64,000 nt of DNA from Naegleria gruberi (taxonomy: Eukaryota): assembly GCA_000004985.1 (NCBI GenBank), contig GG738866.1; one strand, 5' to 3'. The notes beneath the pieces are model-generated. The model ran no database searches. It was not told the DNA's origin and saw only the letters and a list, made by a program, of their open reading frames with translations. A program made the translations under genes and the position numbers. Below, piece by piece: positions 5,847-60,723 of the stretch (its first letter is position 1; each line of letters opens with the position of its first letter).

Positions 5847-6980
5847 TTAGAAACACTTTCTGTGAACGATACCTGAGCCGGCATCTTCGTATTCCTCTTT
5901 CGTTATCCACATAGATTGAAAGGTCGAAAGTGAGGCAAAGATACTGCCTCCAATCCAGACAGAGTACTTTCTTTCTGGTGGAGCAATAACCGTAATCTTC
6001 ATTAAGGCAGGAGCCATAGCAGTCAATTCCTTGGTCATTCTTTCAGCAATACCTTCGAACATGGTTGTACCACCAGACAAGACAACGTTACCGTACAAGT
6101 CCTTTCTGATATCAATATCGCATTTACCAATTGAGTTGTAAGTAGTTTCATGAACACCAGCAGCTTCCATACCAATGAAGTTTGGTTGGAACAACACTTC
6201 TGGACATCTAAATCTTTCATTACCAACAGTAATGACATTACCATCTGGCAATTCGTATGACTTTTCAACAGATGATGATTCAGCAGCAACCTTCATTTCA
6301 GCTTCAAAGTCCAAAGCAATATAACAGAGCTTTTCCTTAATATCTCTGACAATTTCTCTTTCAGCAGTAGTATTGAATGAATAACCTCTTTCCATCAAAA
6401 TCTTCATCAAATAATCAGTCAAGTCACGACCAGCCAAATCCAATCTTAAAATAGCGTGTGGCAAAGCATAACCTTCATAAATTGGAACAGTGTGGGAAAC
6501 ACCATCACCAGAGTCCAAAACAATACCAGTAGTTCTACCAGAAGCATACAAGGACAAGACAGCTTGAATGGCAACATACATGGCTGGAACTGAGAAAGTT
6601 TCAAACATAATTTGAGTCATCTTTTCTCTATTGGCCTTTGGATTCAAAGGAGCTTCAGTCAACAAGACTGGATGTTCTTCTGGAGCAACTCTCAATTCAT
6701 TGTAGAAAGTGTGATGCCAAATCTTTTCCATATCATCCCAATTGGTAACAATACCATGTTCAATTGGATACTTCAAAGTCAAGATATCTCTCTTAGATTG
6801 AGCTTCATCACCAACATAGGCATCCTTATTACCCATACCAACCATGATTGATTTTTGCTTGGGTCTACCAATAATTGAAGGGAAGACAGCTATTGGAGCA
6901 TCATCACCAGCAAAACCAGCTTTACACATTCCAGAACCGTTGTCAACAACGAGGGCTTGAACGTCTTCACAGAAGGACAT
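5847..6980 (-). CDS. Actin (377 aa, complete, single exon); divergent at several usually invariant positions (for example [14 protein letters not shown] and [10 protein letters not shown])
   Basis: Full-length ORF with unmistakable actin sequence ([17 protein letters not shown]...[17 protein letters not shown]); stop TAA at 5847-5849. Confidence 0.95.
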
Positions 6981-7082
6981 GTTGAGAGTTTGTTTTTTTG
7001 TTTGTGAATAATGTCAAGATATCGGGATGTGAGTGTGATGACAGGTTAATGATTTGTTCAAGTTGGGTTGATGGGTGAATGC

Positions 7083-7090
7083 TATAAAAT
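7083..7090 (-). promoter_or_regulatory. Possible TATA element (TATAAAAT) about 100 bp upstream of the actin ATG
   Basis: Position relative to the start codon only; the motif is palindromic-like in AT-rich DNA. Confidence 0.2.
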
Positions 7091-8033
7091 ATGAAGGTCA
7101 ACAAGCAACTTGATGGTAACTTAAATTGTAAAATGAATTGTAAAAGATTATCAACACGCTTTCCTCACTAAAATCTAATCACCTTTACGCTATCCAAATC
7201 AAGAATTTTCCTAATACCAACTTGTTCAAAATATCTTTCTTTGTTTTTCCTTCATTAATTCCAAAGTGTTTTCCGCAATACTTAAACAACCTCTTTCTTA
7301 TTCTACATCATCCATTAAATCAAAAACTATTGCCAGTTGTTGAATTTATAAATTATCCTAAAGAAAATGAGAATAGAAAAATGTATTGAGAGGAATATAG
7401 AGGAAAGGGATTAGGTTGATAGTTATTGGAAAGAGTCATCCCAAAGGCTAAGGAAATGAATTATAAACAAGTGGAATTGGAGCACTTGCATTTGGATTTT
7501 CAAGAGTGGGTGATTGCACATTAATGTTCAAGATGTTATATTAGGTAGATAGGATTTAGTTTCTTAAAAATGGTTTTTATATTCTGTTGTGTGTCATAAT
7601 TATCGCACGATGAGCTGTGCCAATTTTATTCTTTCTACCTCATTTCAGTTCAGATAGTATCCAATCTATGTGGCTCTTCCAAATAATCATAGAATGAATT
7701 TCTCATCAAATTAAAATTCTCATCAAGAACAAAAGATTTAGTGACTGGATCCAGGTTTCAACACACTGAATTGTTTCAGGATCCATAAAAATTGAATTTG
7801 AAAGAAAACTCAATCTTCGTTGGAAACCTTTCGAACTATCATAAGTTAATGAAATGCTAATTCGTTGGAACAGTTTTTCTCTGGGGACCATTCTTGATTT
7901 AGAATTTTTACATTAACAACTCAACAGCAACAAAATTCCACAATATCACAAACTTGAGGTGATTAGTTTCCAATAATTGAACAGGATGATCTACGATATT
8001 CAACTCGGGTTGGTTGACTTAAAATAAAAAAAA

Positions 8034-8999
8034 ATGATTATAAGTGAAGAAAAGGAAAGCCGAGACTCTGCTGTCGTGCAATTAATCGATTTTAATTTAA
8101 ATAGAAACGAAAATTCACTAGTTCCTGATCTTTTCCAGAAATTAAACAACACAATGAAGAATTCTCCCTCCGTTAAGAATCATTTGAAATTTTCACAAAA
8201 CTTTGAAAAAATTGGTGTAGTGCTACTGATGGATGATGGTATTGATTTGGTCATATCGGAACAGTACGATTGTTTAATTATTAATGATGGAAATTATTTG
8301 AAAATTTATAACCTACCACAAGAAGGTGATGGAATTAATTTATCAGTTGATAGATTTAAGTGTTTGCTCTCTGTTCAATATGAGTATTCTTTTGCATGTA
8401 TGAAATTGGTGAATGAAAGAGGGGAGGATTTTATTTATGCAACTGCTAGAGGAGATTGTGTAGTAATTAAGATTAGAGTTTCAGATTTGATGAAGGGAGA
8501 ACCAACATTAATTTGGCAATCGATATTTGCTGTTGAAATTGAGAAATTGGATGTTTTCAAAAATAAGGTCTACATTACTAGTGGTTCAGAAATTATTATT
8601 TTGGATTCAAGCAATGGTCAACCACCTATTCTTGAGGTAAATATGCCAGCAATTGTTGATGGCTATTATCTGAAAATATTGTCAGAAAATCAAATATTAG
8701 TAGGTGATAATGAAAAATTGAAACTATATGGGAGGAATAATGGAGAATGGATCTTGATTAGTGATTTTTTAATTGGTGGCATTACATATATTTACCATGA
8801 AGAAGTTTCTAATTTGTTATACATTTCTATTAATCAAAATAAGGGTAATATTTCAGTGATTGAAATGAAGAATGGAAATTTTGAATTGGTAAAAACTTTT
8901 GGTGAATTTGTGTATAATACTGGAATGAAAATAGATAGAAGAAGTGGATATCTGTATGTTTGTAATACCTGTTCCTTTGAAGTGCTTATATATAAATAA
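8034..8999 (+). CDS. Hypothetical protein (321 aa), no recognisable domain
   Basis: Long ORF with AAAAAAAATG start context and codon usage like neighbouring genes. Confidence 0.55.
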   Translation: MIISEEKESRDSAVVQLIDFNLNRNENSLVPDLFQKLNNTMKNSPSVKNHLKFSQNFEKIGVVLLMDDGIDLVISEQYDCLIINDGNYLKIYNLPQEGDGINLSVDRFKCLLSVQYEYSFACMKLVNERGEDFIYATARGDCVVIKIRVSDLMKGEPTLIWQSIFAVEIEKLDVFKNKVYITSGSEIIILDSSNGQPPILEVNMPAIVDGYYLKILSENQILVGDNEKLKLYGRNNGEWILISDFLIGGITYIYHEEVSNLLYISINQNKGNISVIEMKNGNFELVKTFGEFVYNTGMKIDRRSGYLYVCNTCSFEVLIYK

Positions 9000-9103
9000 T
9001 AAAAACAGGTTCAATAACTGATTCCAAGTTTTGAAGTCTCCATGGTCAATGGAAATTTTGAATGAAAACATCAATCAAATAAACAAAGCTGATAAAAGGA
9101 AAT

Positions 9104-9176
9104 CGCCCACCGTGGGGGTCGAACCCACGACCACAAGGTTAAGAGCCTTGCGCTCTACCGACTGAGCTAGACGGGC
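9104..9176 (-). tRNA. tRNA-Lys(CUU): tRNA-Lys (anticodon CUU)
   Basis: Minus-strand sequence GCCCGTCTAGCTCAGTCGGTAGAGCGCAAGGCTCTTAACCTTGTGGTCGTGGGTTCGACCCCCACGGTGGGCG folds as a cloverleaf: 7-bp acceptor stem, D-loop AGCTCAGTCGGTAGAGC, anticodon loop CTCTTAA, T-loop GGTTCGA, 73 nt, no intron. Confidence 0.9.
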
Positions 9177-10364
9177 TGTATCATACTGAAAATATTAACA
9201 ATAAAAGCTATCCATACTTGTGCATGTTCCAGAAAGTTTCTTCTTATTCAAAATTATTCCCAAAATACTGTAATGTACATCCTCCTACGTAGCTGTCCTG
9301 TTCACTATTCTTTGAATTATTGGAAATATCAGAAACAGATTCTAACCTCCCTTATATAACTTTAATGCAATCGGTATTGACTGTTATTATTTTCTTCGAT
9401 ATTGAGAGATATTTATCATCCTGATTGGTCAATATACAAGTGTAAATTCATTAATCACTTGAACATTCCACACACAAAATCCAAAATCAATTTGTTCTAA
9501 AACTTTTCCATCAGACAAGCTTAATATCGAAAATTTCAAGTAAGGATCACAAAAATAGATAGTATTTCCATAATTTTGTAATCCAGCTGATCCATCAAAT
9601 AATTGACTCTTCCAAACACGTTTCAATTCATTGGGTTCTTTACATCAAACGGATATTTAAACCCCGAAATATTATCAGATAGAAAAGGCTTTCTTTCGTT
9701 TAGATTTGAATTTTTCCAACATGTGGGATGGAAAATTCACGTTAAAATCTATCAATTCGATATTTACTAAATTTCCATTAGTCAAAGATGAGGAATATTT
9801 TCTCTTCTTGGAGCAGCTTTCAAGGGAATTTTTAACAATTCGTTAGTGAAAGCTTCACCATTTTTTGTAACATTAGTTTGGATTGAAATTTTGTTTGTGT
9901 GATCTGATGGTCACTCCATGGTTGAAGAGAAACATCCAAGTTGAAAGTAGTAATTCATTGGAAGTTGATCATTTGCCATACTAAGATTCACTTTCAGGAA
10001 GAAGTTATTGTAATGATAGAAATACTTTTGAAAGGAATATGGTTACGTCATTCATTAAAGAAAGGTTTGGAAAGATTATCTTTTTTTTTATCCAATTTTA
10101 AAAAGCAGATTCCAAACATGTTTAATTCCAAAAATAGCACAAGTTCTTTCTAAGGAATTGATGTTAGACAACAATACAGTGAGTAATTTGCTTCAAGTTG
10201 AGGTCGATGAACTCTGAACAAATGTACTAAGTCTATTAAATCCCTTCAAATACGAAACTAATCCTCTAACCAATTTTTCTTTAAAACCTGAATCAATACA
10301 GCAATATTTTCAAAAACAACAAAACAAAAATACTTAAAAAACACTTCAAACTACTCACAACAAA

Positions 10365-11459
10365 ATGGAAGAACACCAAGCTCTTGTAATTGACAATGGT
10401 TCTGGAATGTGTAAAGCTGGTTTCGCTGGCGAAGATGCTCCTCGTGCTGTTTTTCCTTCATTAATTGGTAGACCAAAACAAAGGTCAATTATGGTTGGAA
10501 TGGGAAATAAGGATGCCTATGTTGGAGATGAAGCCATGTCAAAGAAGGGAATCCTCGCTCTCAAATATCCAATTGAGCACGGAATTATCACAAACTGGGA
10601 TGATATGGAAAAGATTTGGCATCATACTTTCTATAATGAATTGAGAGTTGGTCCTGAAGAGCATGGTGTCTTATTAACTGAGGCTCCATTGAATCCAAAG
10701 GCAAATCGTGAAAAGATGACACAAATTATGTTCGAAACCTTTAGAGTTCCAGCCATGTATGTTGCCATTCAAGCTGTCTTGTCCTTGTATGCTTCTGGAA
10801 GAACCACTGGTATTGTTTTGGATTCAGGAGATGGTGTTTCTCATACTGTTCCAATTTATGAAGGTTATGCTTTACCACATGCCATTTTGAGATTGGATTT
10901 GGCTGGTCGTGACTTGACTGATTATTTGATGAAGATCTTGATGGAACGTGGATACAGTTTCAATACCAGTGCTGAACGTGAAATTGTTAGAGATATTAAG
11001 GAAAAGCTTTGTTATGTTGCATTTGATTTTGAAACTGAAATGAAGAAAGCATCTGACAGTTCATCCATTGATACTTCATATGAATTACCAGATGGTAATG
11101 TTATCACAGTTGGTAACGAAAGATTCAGATGTCCAGAAGTGTTGTTCCAACCAAATTTCATTGGAATGGAAGCTGCTGGTGTTCATGAAACAACTTTCAA
11201 TTCTATTGGAAAGTGTGATATTGACATTAGAAAGGATTTATATGCCAATGTTGTACTTTCAGGCGGTACAACCATGTTTGAAGGAATTGCGGAGAGAATG
11301 AACAAGGAATTGACAGCTATGGCTCCAGCCTCAATGAAGATTACGGTTATTGCTCCACCAGAAAATTTGAAAAATAAATCAAATTCAAACATTTTCTTGA
11401 AATTAGATAGAAGTTTGTTGTTGTTGGAAAGCTCGTTGAATATCTTGACCAACTTTTGA
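10365..11459 (+). CDS. Actin paralog with an aberrant C-terminus (3'-truncated actin copy; possibly a pseudogene or neofunctionalised)
   Basis: Actin homology through residue 324 (…[10 protein letters not shown]), ending at nt 11364. The ORF then continues for 39 unrelated low-complexity codons ([31 protein letters not shown]) instead of the conserved [10 protein letters not shown]…HRKCF tail. No splice donor at the break. Confidence 0.8.
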
Positions 11460-36826: not shown

Positions 36827-37574
36827 AATTCAAGCAACATGCTGGTACAATCATCAATACCAATATTGACTTTGATGCTTACAGTTATTCAAAAATTCAC
36901 TTAATTATGGGAGAAAGGGTGGCTCCAAAACTGACGGATAGTGCAATGTCTGCTTGAAACCTACCAAAGGGTGCTCTCAACTTGTTTCCAAGGAGGCACA
37001 CCTCTGGACCCGACAAAAAATTGAGTTAATAGTAAACGCGCCCCGTAGGACGCTTTCAGCTATTAAACTGAAAAGAACAGATACTACACTCGATCAAAGC
37101 CAAAAGGCCGAGAAAGATGTTTTGTAGAAAAGGCTTACCAGTAGTGTATAAATGCCATTTCAAAGTGGCTTTGTTGGTGGAGAAAATTTGTGGGATTTGA
37201 ATATTTTTAAACAAGTTTGAAAATAAAATTGTGAGGAATGAAAAAGCCATCACATACCTTTCATTGATCCATATGTTCAGTTACAAAGCTTTTAGTTCTT
37301 TATTGGCTTCGTCTTTCATGATCACTGGAGCGGAAAGAAGAAAAGCGTTTCGTTTGAACATGTGCTTCGCTTCACATAGAACAAAGCAAACTTGGTACTA
37401 CCTAGGTATTGTTCTTGTGATGTCATATTGATGACATCGATTGATGGTGCGAAGATCGTTGTCGGCTGTTTTTTTTTTATTATTTAAAATAATTTGTTAA
37501 CGGTAATATTTTTAAAATTACCAAACTTAACACTAGAGGGTATATTAAACCTTTTATTTTACAATTAATGTGCT

Positions 37575-37645
37575 CGTCTCGTGGTGTAATGGTAGCATAG
37601 TGGACTTTGAATCCATTGACGGAGGTTCGATTCCTCCCGAGACGG
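37575..37645 (+). tRNA. tRNA-Gln(UUG): tRNA-Gln (anticodon UUG)
   Basis: CGTCTCGTGGTGTAATGGTAGCATAGTGGACTTTGAATCCATTGACGGAGGTTCGATTCCTCCCGAGACGG: acceptor CGTCTCG/CGAGACG, anticodon arm CTGGA-CTTTGAA-TCCAG by analogy to the canonical Gln-UUG arm, T-arm GGAGG-TTCGATT-CCTCC. Confidence 0.85.
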
Positions 37646-37925
37646 TAAACGTGGCGAGCCATGAAATTTTTATTTTCAAATTGTTCAAATTGATGCATCA
37701 CTTGCATGTTAATTTTGATGATACTCCAGTTCACTCCATCAATTCCACACAAAATTTCTCCATTAAGCTGAAATACCGTACTCAACGGTCCAAAATGAAC
37801 ACTTTTACAAAAACTGAAACAGCCCATTCAATGATTCACTTTGCACAATTTGCTATCCACGCAAACGCTCCCAACACCAAGATTTCAAAGATTTCGCAGC
37901 AAACCAACAATCCAAATTAAAAAAA

Positions 37926-59529: not shown

Positions 59530-60723
59530 TCAACAACAATTTCTGTGAACAATTGATGGACCAACATCGTCATAATCTTGTTTTGAAATGTAATTCTGTT
59601 GGGTTTCAGAGGATGCCATTATTGAACCACCAATCCAACTGAGGTAATGTCTTTCTGGTGGGGCAGTAACCTTGATACTCATGGAAACAGGGGCTAAACT
59701 ACATAATTCCCTTTGCAATCTTTCTCCAATACCTTCAAACATGGTATTTCCACCACTAAGCACAATGTTGTTGAATAGATCTGGTCTCAATTCAAGGTTA
59801 CACTTTCCAATTGATTTAAATATCATTTCATGAATTCCACCCTCATCCAATCCTATTGATTCTGGATGAAACAATACTTCTGGACATCTGAATCTTTCAC
59901 TTTCAATCGTGATCATGTTTCCATCTGGTAATTCATATTGTTTCGATTTAAATTGTTCAAGTTCCTTATCAAAATCCAAAGCCACGTAACAAAATTTCTT
60001 AATTTCTGCAGACAACCACCTCTCATTCACATTTACCTTCTTTCCATTACGCTCCAAAAAGCAACGTCCACTTCTTGTCTCAGCCCCATAGCATGGCTCT
60101 TCAAAATACCTCGTCAATTTAAATTTACCCTGTTCGTTTAGAATCTGATATAACCAATCAGACAAATCCTCTCCACCCAATTCCAATCTAGAAACTGCAT
60201 GTTTAATAGCACGTCCCTCATGAATTGGAACTGATTGAGTAATTCCACCCCCACTCTCCAACACCACACCAGTTAGACAATCACAAGCTACCATCGACAA
60301 AGCTGCCTGATTTGCCAAACACAACAATGGTACCATAAAAGATTCAAACATGATCTGTGTTGTCTTTTCACGACTTGCCTCATCACTCAACACACTCTCT
60401 GTCACTAATACACCTAGATCCTCAGGATCAGTTCTCAATTCATTGTAAAATATGTGATACCACACCTTCTCCATGCCTTCCCAATCCACAACAGTGCCAC
60501 GTTCGATGGGAAACTTGGCCCACGTTGTACCAATCTTGCAAAATACTTCATCTCCAACTCTCCCAAATTTATCCTTATAACCGAACATGATTGAATTACT
60601 ACTAATCTTGTGATATTCGACAACGGAAGGGAATATGGCGATAGGTGTTTCATCTCCTGCAAAACCTACATTGCACATTGATGATCCACAGTCAATCACT
60701 ACGTTTTGAATAAGTGAAGACAT
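59530..60723 (-). CDS. Divergent actin-like / actin-related protein (397 aa)
   Basis: Actin fold motifs retained (VIDCGSSMCNVGFAGDETP, WIGGSIMAS, GPSIVHRNCC) but about 35-40% identity to actin, with an insertion around residues 200-235. Confidence 0.8.
   Translation of the reverse strand: MSSLIQNVVIDCGSSMCNVGFAGDETPIAIFPSVVEYHKISSNSIMFGYKDKFGRVGDEVFCKIGTTWAKFPIERGTVVDWEGMEKVWYHIFYNELRTDPEDLGVLVTESVLSDEASREKTTQIMFESFMVPLLCLANQAALSMVACDCLTGVVLESGGGITQSVPIHEGRAIKHAVSRLELGGEDLSDWLYQILNEQGKFKLTRYFEEPCYGAETRSGRCFLERNGKKVNVNERWLSAEIKKFCYVALDFDKELEQFKSKQYELPDGNMITIESERFRCPEVLFHPESIGLDEGGIHEMIFKSIGKCNLELRPDLFNNIVLSGGNTMFEGIGERLQRELCSLAPVSMSIKVTAPPERHYLSWIGGSIMASSETQQNYISKQDYDDVGPSIVHRNCC

Follow-up and report, generated by a model that had tools for sequence, protein, structure and literature searches.

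A truncated actin gene head-to-head with a chimeric intact actin gene in Naegleria gruberi: possible outcome of a single ectopic recombination

Naegleria gruberi carries two actin genes in head-to-head orientation on the same 469,335-bp contig (GG738866.1) of the NEG-M reference assembly (GCA_000004985.1), and both lie within the 64,000-nt stretch of that contig analysed here (the window). Both genes are already present in the public annotation. The first, actin A (5847-6980, minus strand; NAEGRDRAFT_56150, XP_002677561.1, UniProt D2VE39), is an intact gene of 377 amino acids (aa) whose open reading frame (ORF) and translation are identical to the annotated protein. The second, actin B (10365-11459, plus strand; NAEGRDRAFT_33387, XP_002677472.1, UniProt D2VE41, named 'Actin'), is an ORF of 364 aa. 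We find that actin B belongs to a different and ancient actin type and has lost its 3' end, and that actin A, although intact, is a recombinant whose own 3' end comes from elsewhere. We lean towards the view that a truncated B-type fragment lies beside a chimeric intact actin A as the result of one recombination, and that the remaining mosaic of identity between the two genes is not specific to this pair. The recombinant nature of actin A is a point new to this analysis, which an earlier reading of the locus from its sequence (the original prediction) had missed.

Positions within the genes are given below as columns, that is, as positions in a codon alignment of six Naegleria actin sequences numbered on the actin A coding sequence (CDS). 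Comparisons of N. gruberi DNA cover actin A, actin B and the CDS of the unlinked paralogue 55094, taken from a Logan contig; the paralogues 48298 and 49788 were compared as proteins. The comparators from other species were three A-type genes of N. fowleri (L002-L004), three A-type genes of N. lovaniensis (L006-L008) and the N. fowleri B-type gene FDP41_007473 (L005).

Loss of the C-terminus of actin B

Actins A and B represent two ancient paralogue types, the conventional A-type and the B-type, both of which are also found in N. fowleri. The signature residues of the B-type are common to N. gruberi actin B and NAEGRDRAFT_48298 and to N. fowleri FDP41_007473, and because they are shared across species the split between the types must predate the split between the species. 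An ungapped alignment of A and B yields 84.5% nucleotide identity over 999 nt and 303 identical residues among 333, in keeping with the original prediction that the two proteins differ at many sites. A repeat search of the window recovers the same homology as inverted arms of 997 nt (5972-6968 and 10368-11364) with 85% identity. The homology between A and B is confined to the CDS and extends neither into the spacer nor into the flanks; since it stops at the CDS limits, an inverted duplication that included flanking DNA was ruled out.

In the alignment with A, actin homology in B ends exactly after CCACCAGAAA, at nucleotide 11364. The actin-homologous part of B (10365-11364, plus strand) comprises codons 1-333 plus one base and is B-type, and the frame then reads through 31 novel codons into a TGA stop (11365-11459, plus strand). 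The Pfam Actin profile (PF00022) is matched at full length by A (profile positions 2-410 of 410, E=3.5e-145) and only at positions 2-368 of 410 by B. When B is aligned to Dictyostelium actin (PDB 3chw), its residues 2-334 pair with residues 3-335 of that chain, and because the final pair, N334/R335, is a mismatch, the homology ends at Glu334 of the chain. Missing from B are the 41 C-terminal residues (333 of 374 codons are kept), in place of which stand the 31 unrelated codons. The original prediction had placed this truncation precisely; the loss it described is real, although its extent is 41 residues rather than the roughly 50 then estimated. The lost segment is retained in every other Naegleria actin examined, and its absence constitutes a disabling lesion relative to intact paralogues, of the kind expected in an unprocessed pseudogene. 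In the actin fold these residues make up the C-terminal helices of subdomain 1, which contribute to its core and to the barbed-end cleft that profilin binds.

An intron at 11364 could in principle restore the actin C-terminus. A tblastn search at E values up to 100, for which both the complete actin and its last 41 aa served as queries, found no actin C-terminus downstream of B on either strand; the only copies of that segment in the 64 kb belong to A and to a third actin-family gene (59536-60711). Rescue by an intron was thus rejected, there being no C-terminal exon anywhere in the window. The insertion of a mobile element at 11364 was rejected as well: the 3.6 kb downstream has no second copy in the window, and actin sequence never resumes. 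In the 2.4 kb between the breakpoint and the next gene there is no Pfam match and no recognisable coding sequence. Nothing similar to the 31-codon tail occurs elsewhere in the window, and the junction peptide has no match in the protein database.

These features of the sequence suggest that B is a dead or dying copy, a fragment that would be non-functional. An alternative is that the shortening of B is deliberate, giving a functional actin-like protein that ends in 31 new residues. Such a protein would be consistent with the open frame of 364 codons, with the annotation of B as a protein and with its resemblance to the intact paralogue NAEGRDRAFT_48298, from which it differs at 2 of 333 residues, T327 and I329 only (331/333 identical). 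We regard this alternative as highly improbable. The product would be without the 41 residues that the other Naegleria actins examined all possess, and the lost helices belong to the core of subdomain 1. The tail, moreover, matches nothing in a protein-database search, and a read-through of 31 codons is by our estimate not unusual in AT-rich DNA; the window is AT-rich eukaryotic DNA with a GC content of 34%.

The chimeric 3' end of actin A and its relation to the end of actin B

Over columns 1-960 actin A is 95.2% identical to its unlinked paralogue 55094, and its last ~100 nt have only 76.5% identity to any available sequence. The synonymous divergence (dS) between A and 55094 rises from 0.25 in columns 1-1008 to 1.52 in columns 1009-1131, and no comparable jump is present when 55094 is compared with N. 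fowleri or N. lovaniensis. A maximum chi-square analysis places a changepoint in A after column 1031 (chi-square 52, permutation P<0.0005), with a support interval of 2 log-likelihood units (2-lnL) that spans columns 967-1034 and brackets column 1009. The divergent 3' segment of A, designated X (columns ~972-1134; 5847-6009, minus strand), encodes the actin C-terminus. Its GC content at third codon positions (GC3) is 0.49, against 0.315 in the rest of A. At the protein level the 11-residue tail peptide of A matches the B-type proteins of N. fowleri; at the DNA level the tail is equidistant from all compared sequences and resembles neither the B-type nor the A-type. Actin A is, in sum, intact and recombinant: its first ~970-1030 nt are 55094-like, and its last ~100-160 nt come from elsewhere.

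The ratio of nonsynonymous to synonymous divergence (dN/dS) in the tail of A, measured against 55094, is 0.05. Segment X appears to derive from an actin lineage that separated long ago and remained subject to purifying selection. Relaxed selection on the whole of A was ruled out, as dN/dS against 55094 over columns 1-1008 is 0.03, which is normal here. The overall dN/dS of A is normal despite seven replacements (R30I, G65D, S326L, K330T, L348F, Q356S and P369S) at sites that are invariant in the other A-type Naegleria actins examined.

Close to the switch in A, the two genes have in common a 31-nt tract of perfect identity (ATGAAGATTACGGTTATTGCTCCACCAGAAA; 5972-6002, minus strand, in A), the B-side copy of which (11334-11364, plus strand) ends at the breakpoint. 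Among the three long runs of identity between the genes this one, run 3, is the only one private to A and B. Columns 975-1008 contain four sites that distinguish B from 55094, and A has the B state at each of them. Relative to 55094 two of the changes are replacements, K>T (AAG>ACG) and V>I (GTT>ATT), and the resulting T327 and I329 are the two residues that separate B from 48298; further states in which A equals B are GCT>GCC at column 975 and GAA at column 1008, where 55094 has GAG, yet other species also have GAA. The motif KITVI was found only in A and B among 250 fetched proteins.

The switch in A (columns 967-1034), the private tract (columns 975-1009) and the end of homology in B (column 1009) fall together within ~60 nt, and from this coincidence of position we infer one ectopic recombination. 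It would most likely have occurred between the inverted copies A and B, near columns 961-1009. Such an event could have taken one of two forms, either of which would yield the shared tract and the present end of B. A crossover with an adjacent conversion tract would have inverted the spacer and swapped the 5' gene bodies; it would account, with one exchange point, for a foreign segment in A that reaches the stop codon, and it requires that the right-hand copy had been truncated beforehand. Alternatively, a break in the 3' region of B would have been followed by invasion of A, the copying of ~35-50 nt and end-joining to downstream DNA. This second form would account for a tract that abuts the breakpoint, and would not account for the switch of A at the same place.

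The features of the two genes could also have come together by coincidence, B having been cut short by an ordinary deletion or having arisen as a partial copy of 48298, A having received its foreign 3' end from a third actin gene, and the 31-nt tract being a small conversion independent of both. Fragments are common in actin families, as in the actinome of Dictyostelium discoideum (PMC2441452), and the resemblance of X to neither B-type nor A-type DNA would suit separate origins. Such a combination seems unlikely to us, in that it would have to place three boundaries within ~60 nt of a 1.1-kb gene. In addition, X reaches the stop codon and leaves at most 15 nt of homology for a second conversion boundary, and for that reason a single exchange point is favoured.

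A further explanation is that the junction at 11364, the 3' end of A, or both are chimeric joins in a draft Sanger assembly. Actin is multicopy, and the draft scaffold has gaps, seen as runs of N at 956-1005 and 2186-2433. Searches with the exact protein, with the junction peptide and with a 27-nt exact scan of metagenome contigs found no independent contig or protein with the junction; no contig encoding the exact 364-aa product of B is on record, and likewise none for actin A. An artefact is nonetheless quite improbable. There is no gap near either actin gene, and the sequence to the right of 11364 is unique and non-actin, so that a misjoin induced by repeats is not expected. The frame of B is clean, as is the full-length frame of A, whose odd segment keeps the low dN/dS given above, and the private K>T / V>I tract is present in two separately assembled places.

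Several observations weigh against a single recombination that links truncation, chimerism and private tract. A donor for the 3' segment of A was not found, the best match being 83% with 80 metagenome actin loci included; a C-terminal protein search for it returned short fragments only, and was non-exhaustive in that the self-hit was missed too. The second replacement in the tract, I329, is also present in paralogue 49788 (as KIKVI), which leaves only K>T strictly unique. The link itself is a coincidence of position, and by a rough estimate there is a ~6% chance that the 68-nt interval in A would hold the B breakpoint. A reciprocal crossover also predicts A-type sequence distal to the exchange in B, and none is there: of the two arms, A is chimeric and B ends in non-actin DNA. 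Because B has no distal A-type sequence, an extra conversion step or a prior truncation must be assumed. Finally, truncation is the sole disabling change in B, whose residues otherwise match those of 48298 at 331 of 333 positions, and the term 'pseudogene' is to that extent an interpretation.

Conservation and older conversion in the A-B patchwork

The original prediction had attributed the alternation of identical and divergent stretches in A and B to repeated short conversion tracts between them. The three identical runs on which it drew are all present and all perfect. Run 1 is 50 nt long (10749-10798 in B; 6538-6587, minus strand, in A) and run 2 is 44 nt long (10893-10936 in B; 6400-6443, minus strand, in A), and the two mark out a central region of B (10749-10936, plus strand); run 3 is the 31-nt tract at 11334-11364 described above. 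If the head-to-head genes had repeatedly swapped short tracts, all three runs would be products of that exchange and the truncation of B would be a separate event.

A GENECONV-style permutation on 273 polymorphic sites among the six Naegleria actin sequences lends this proposal some support. The three longest A-B matching runs at polymorphic sites are exactly the three runs in question, and together they exceed the permuted expectation, with P=0.0035 for their sum and P=0.0006 for the occurrence of three runs that span 8 or more sites; for the longest run taken by itself, P=0.084. The A-B pair thus has matching fragments longer than permutation allows, as conversion would leave, and the unlinked 55094-B pair from the same species has no such excess (P=0.29). 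Derived states in common with B number 14 for A and 4 for 55094. When A and B are taken alone, the patchwork at synonymous codons is marginal (permutation P = 0.03-0.19, according to the statistic).

The specificity of the fragments to this pair holds for columns 975-1009 and fails for runs 1 and 2. In each of these two runs 55094 differs from B at one site; of the two differences, one reflects a substitution found in 55094 only and the other a C>T change of a sort that recurs in A. Run 1 is kept across the three species and in both types, with 0-1 mismatches in all their A-type genes and 3 mismatches in the B-type gene of N. fowleri. Run 2 contains the codons CGT GAC in all three N. gruberi sequences, where every sequence from N. 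fowleri and N. lovaniensis, of either type, has AGA GAT, and this is a signature of conversion; because 55094 has run 2 too, the exchange would predate the split of A from 55094 or be family-wide. Third-position C>T changes make up 7 of the 14 derived states common to A and B. Runs 1 and 2 would seem, on this comparison, not to depend on the head-to-head arrangement.

Profiles of sliding identity in 60-nt windows point the same way. The patchwork between A and B is visible in them, yet the profile for 55094 and B is nearly the same (r=0.96). The A-B profile is also correlated with those between A-type genes of N. fowleri or N. lovaniensis and N. gruberi B (r=0.85-0.86), and with the fully independent profile of the N. 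fowleri A-type and B-type genes (r=0.69, P=1.5e-5). With an odds ratio of 2.6 (P=8e-4), codons identical between A and B tend to be identical in the N. fowleri pair as well, and nucleotide identity across types is 82-86% regardless of species. Since the same profiles recur in pairs that do not include A and cannot have exchanged with it, most of the A-B patchwork can largely be ascribed to site-specific synonymous conservation, genus-wide, in a codon-biased gene. Repeated conversion between A and B as the source of all three runs is accordingly doubtful; the earlier conversion reading was right in spirit and largely mis-assigned. Where a gene is highly expressed and codon-biased, long runs of perfect identity between its paralogues do not alone amount to evidence for conversion, because the same runs recur between long-diverged species.

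Conversion of a different and older kind is suggested by four-taxon site patterns. Among 55094, B and the A-type and B-type genes of N. fowleri, 43 sites group the sequences by type, 20 by species and 4 across both (species against cross patterns, binomial P=8e-4). In columns 380-600, limits that were chosen post hoc, 8 sites follow species and 1 follows type, compared with 12 and 42 elsewhere (Fisher P=2.4e-4). At one Arg codon in this region every N. gruberi sequence has AGA where every sequence from the other two species has CGT; at a second Arg codon the usage is reversed, and a Leu codon also differs (TTG against CTC). A shift in codon preference was ruled out because the two Arg codons switch between AGA and CGT in opposite directions. 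These patterns argue for an older conversion between A-types and B-types within species over a central stretch of ~200 nt, inside which run 2 would lie. The N. fowleri A-type/B-type pair has an excess of long runs of its own (P=0.019), and the cross-species A-type/B-type pairs give P=0.05-0.75. NAEGRDRAFT_49788, on another scaffold, is a mosaic at the protein level, with B-type N- and C-termini and an A-type middle block of 39 residues, and as such gives further support to exchange between actin types in N. gruberi.

Actin loci in the genus and the surroundings of the pair

Inverted actin copies are also found in the two other species. In N. fowleri (GCA_008403515.1) the A-type genes L003 and L004 are convergent, 23 kb apart on VFQX01000044.1, and identical at 1128 of 1128 positions; identity among the copies of this species is limited to the CDS ± 50 nt. 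A 45.6-kb N. fowleri contig, VFQX01000080.1 (carrying L002), joins the upstream flank of L003 to the downstream flank of L004 at 99.5% identity; it is either a chimera of the assembly or the inversion isomer that a crossover inside the actin CDS would give. A single contig of N. lovaniensis (GCA_003324165.2) holds L007 and L008 in inverted orientation, ~44 kb apart, with CDS that are 100% identical and similarity that extends ~700 nt or more upstream; L006 and L007 are 97% identical within the CDS ± 50 nt. The actin CDS of N. lovaniensis are homogenised within the species. By analogy with the N. fowleri copies and the flank recombinant, an ectopic recombination of the kind proposed for A and B is plausible in this genus. 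The sexual cycle and recombination in Naegleria are poorly characterised. By tblastx the N. gruberi locus has no flanks in common with the actin loci of N. fowleri or N. lovaniensis, and a 321-aa gene beside one N. lovaniensis actin proved unrelated to the ORF of the same length in the A-B spacer.

Three known systems offer comparison. In CDS-limited concerted evolution, copies remain 97-100% identical within the CDS ± 50 nt between unrelated flanks, as in N. fowleri and N. lovaniensis, and the species-specific codons that occupy the middle of genes of both types fit the same process; A and B, unlike such copies, are at 85% and not homogenised, and their pair-private tract measures only ~35 nt. 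The D. discoideum actinome combines near-identical actin genes with partial or disabled copies, and its seven potential pseudogenes are mostly short partial actin domains (PMC2441452). N. gruberi B differs from these in that it keeps 333 of 374 codons in frame and a protein near-identical to that of an intact paralogue, and in that it lies head-to-head with a chimeric intact gene. Flip-flop inversion by inverted repeats, finally, would match the 997-nt inverted arms 3.4 kb apart, the 5'/3' chimera on the left and the joined flanks of two inverted actin copies in VFQX01000080.1. At odds with it, the reciprocal product is not seen, B ending in non-actin DNA; the alternative orientation of the spacer is not observed in the one N. 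gruberi assembly, and the N. fowleri contig could be a chimera.

A broader and decidedly speculative proposal is that inverted Naegleria actin pairs undergo recurrent within-CDS crossover, a flip-flop of which NAEGRDRAFT_56150/33387 would be a fossil and VFQX01000044/VFQX01000080 a live polymorphism. If true, recurrent crossover would place promoters and 5' gene bodies onto other 3' ends, giving rise to chimeric isoforms and, now and then, to truncated by-products. The locus, along with the CDS-limited identity seen in N. fowleri and N. lovaniensis, makes a tractable case for the study of ectopic recombination in an actin family. More immediately, the UniProt 'Actin' entry D2VE41 (XP_002677472.1) is a C-terminally truncated fragment, which should be left out of counts and models of functional isoforms, and XP_002677561.1, being recombinant, would mislead actin phylogenies in which its 5' and 3' parts are pooled. 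The locus is otherwise ordinary gene-family turnover, of modest interest and unsurprising to specialists in gene families. Within the library searched, we found no paper that discusses the identifiers of the actin A and B genes, and one proteomics paper that lists D2VE39.

The layout of the locus agrees in all coordinates with the original prediction of a divergent pair around a ~3.4-kb spacer holding a 321-aa ORF and a tRNA-Lys gene. The spacer between the divergent start codons (6981-10364) measures 3384 nt; its 321-aa ORF (8034-8999, plus strand) has no Pfam match, and the tRNA-Lys(CTT) gene lies at 9104-9176 on the minus strand. The third actin-family gene of the window (59536-60711, minus strand; 392 aa, Pfam Actin E=2.7e-99) is 49% identical to actin A and may be an actin-related protein. 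Between 13766 and 19978 on the plus strand, ORFs of 307 aa and 1706 aa, probably one gene, are rich in Big_9 and cadherin-like repeats, after which comes a VWA domain. A tRNA-Gln(TTG) gene is located at 37574-37646.

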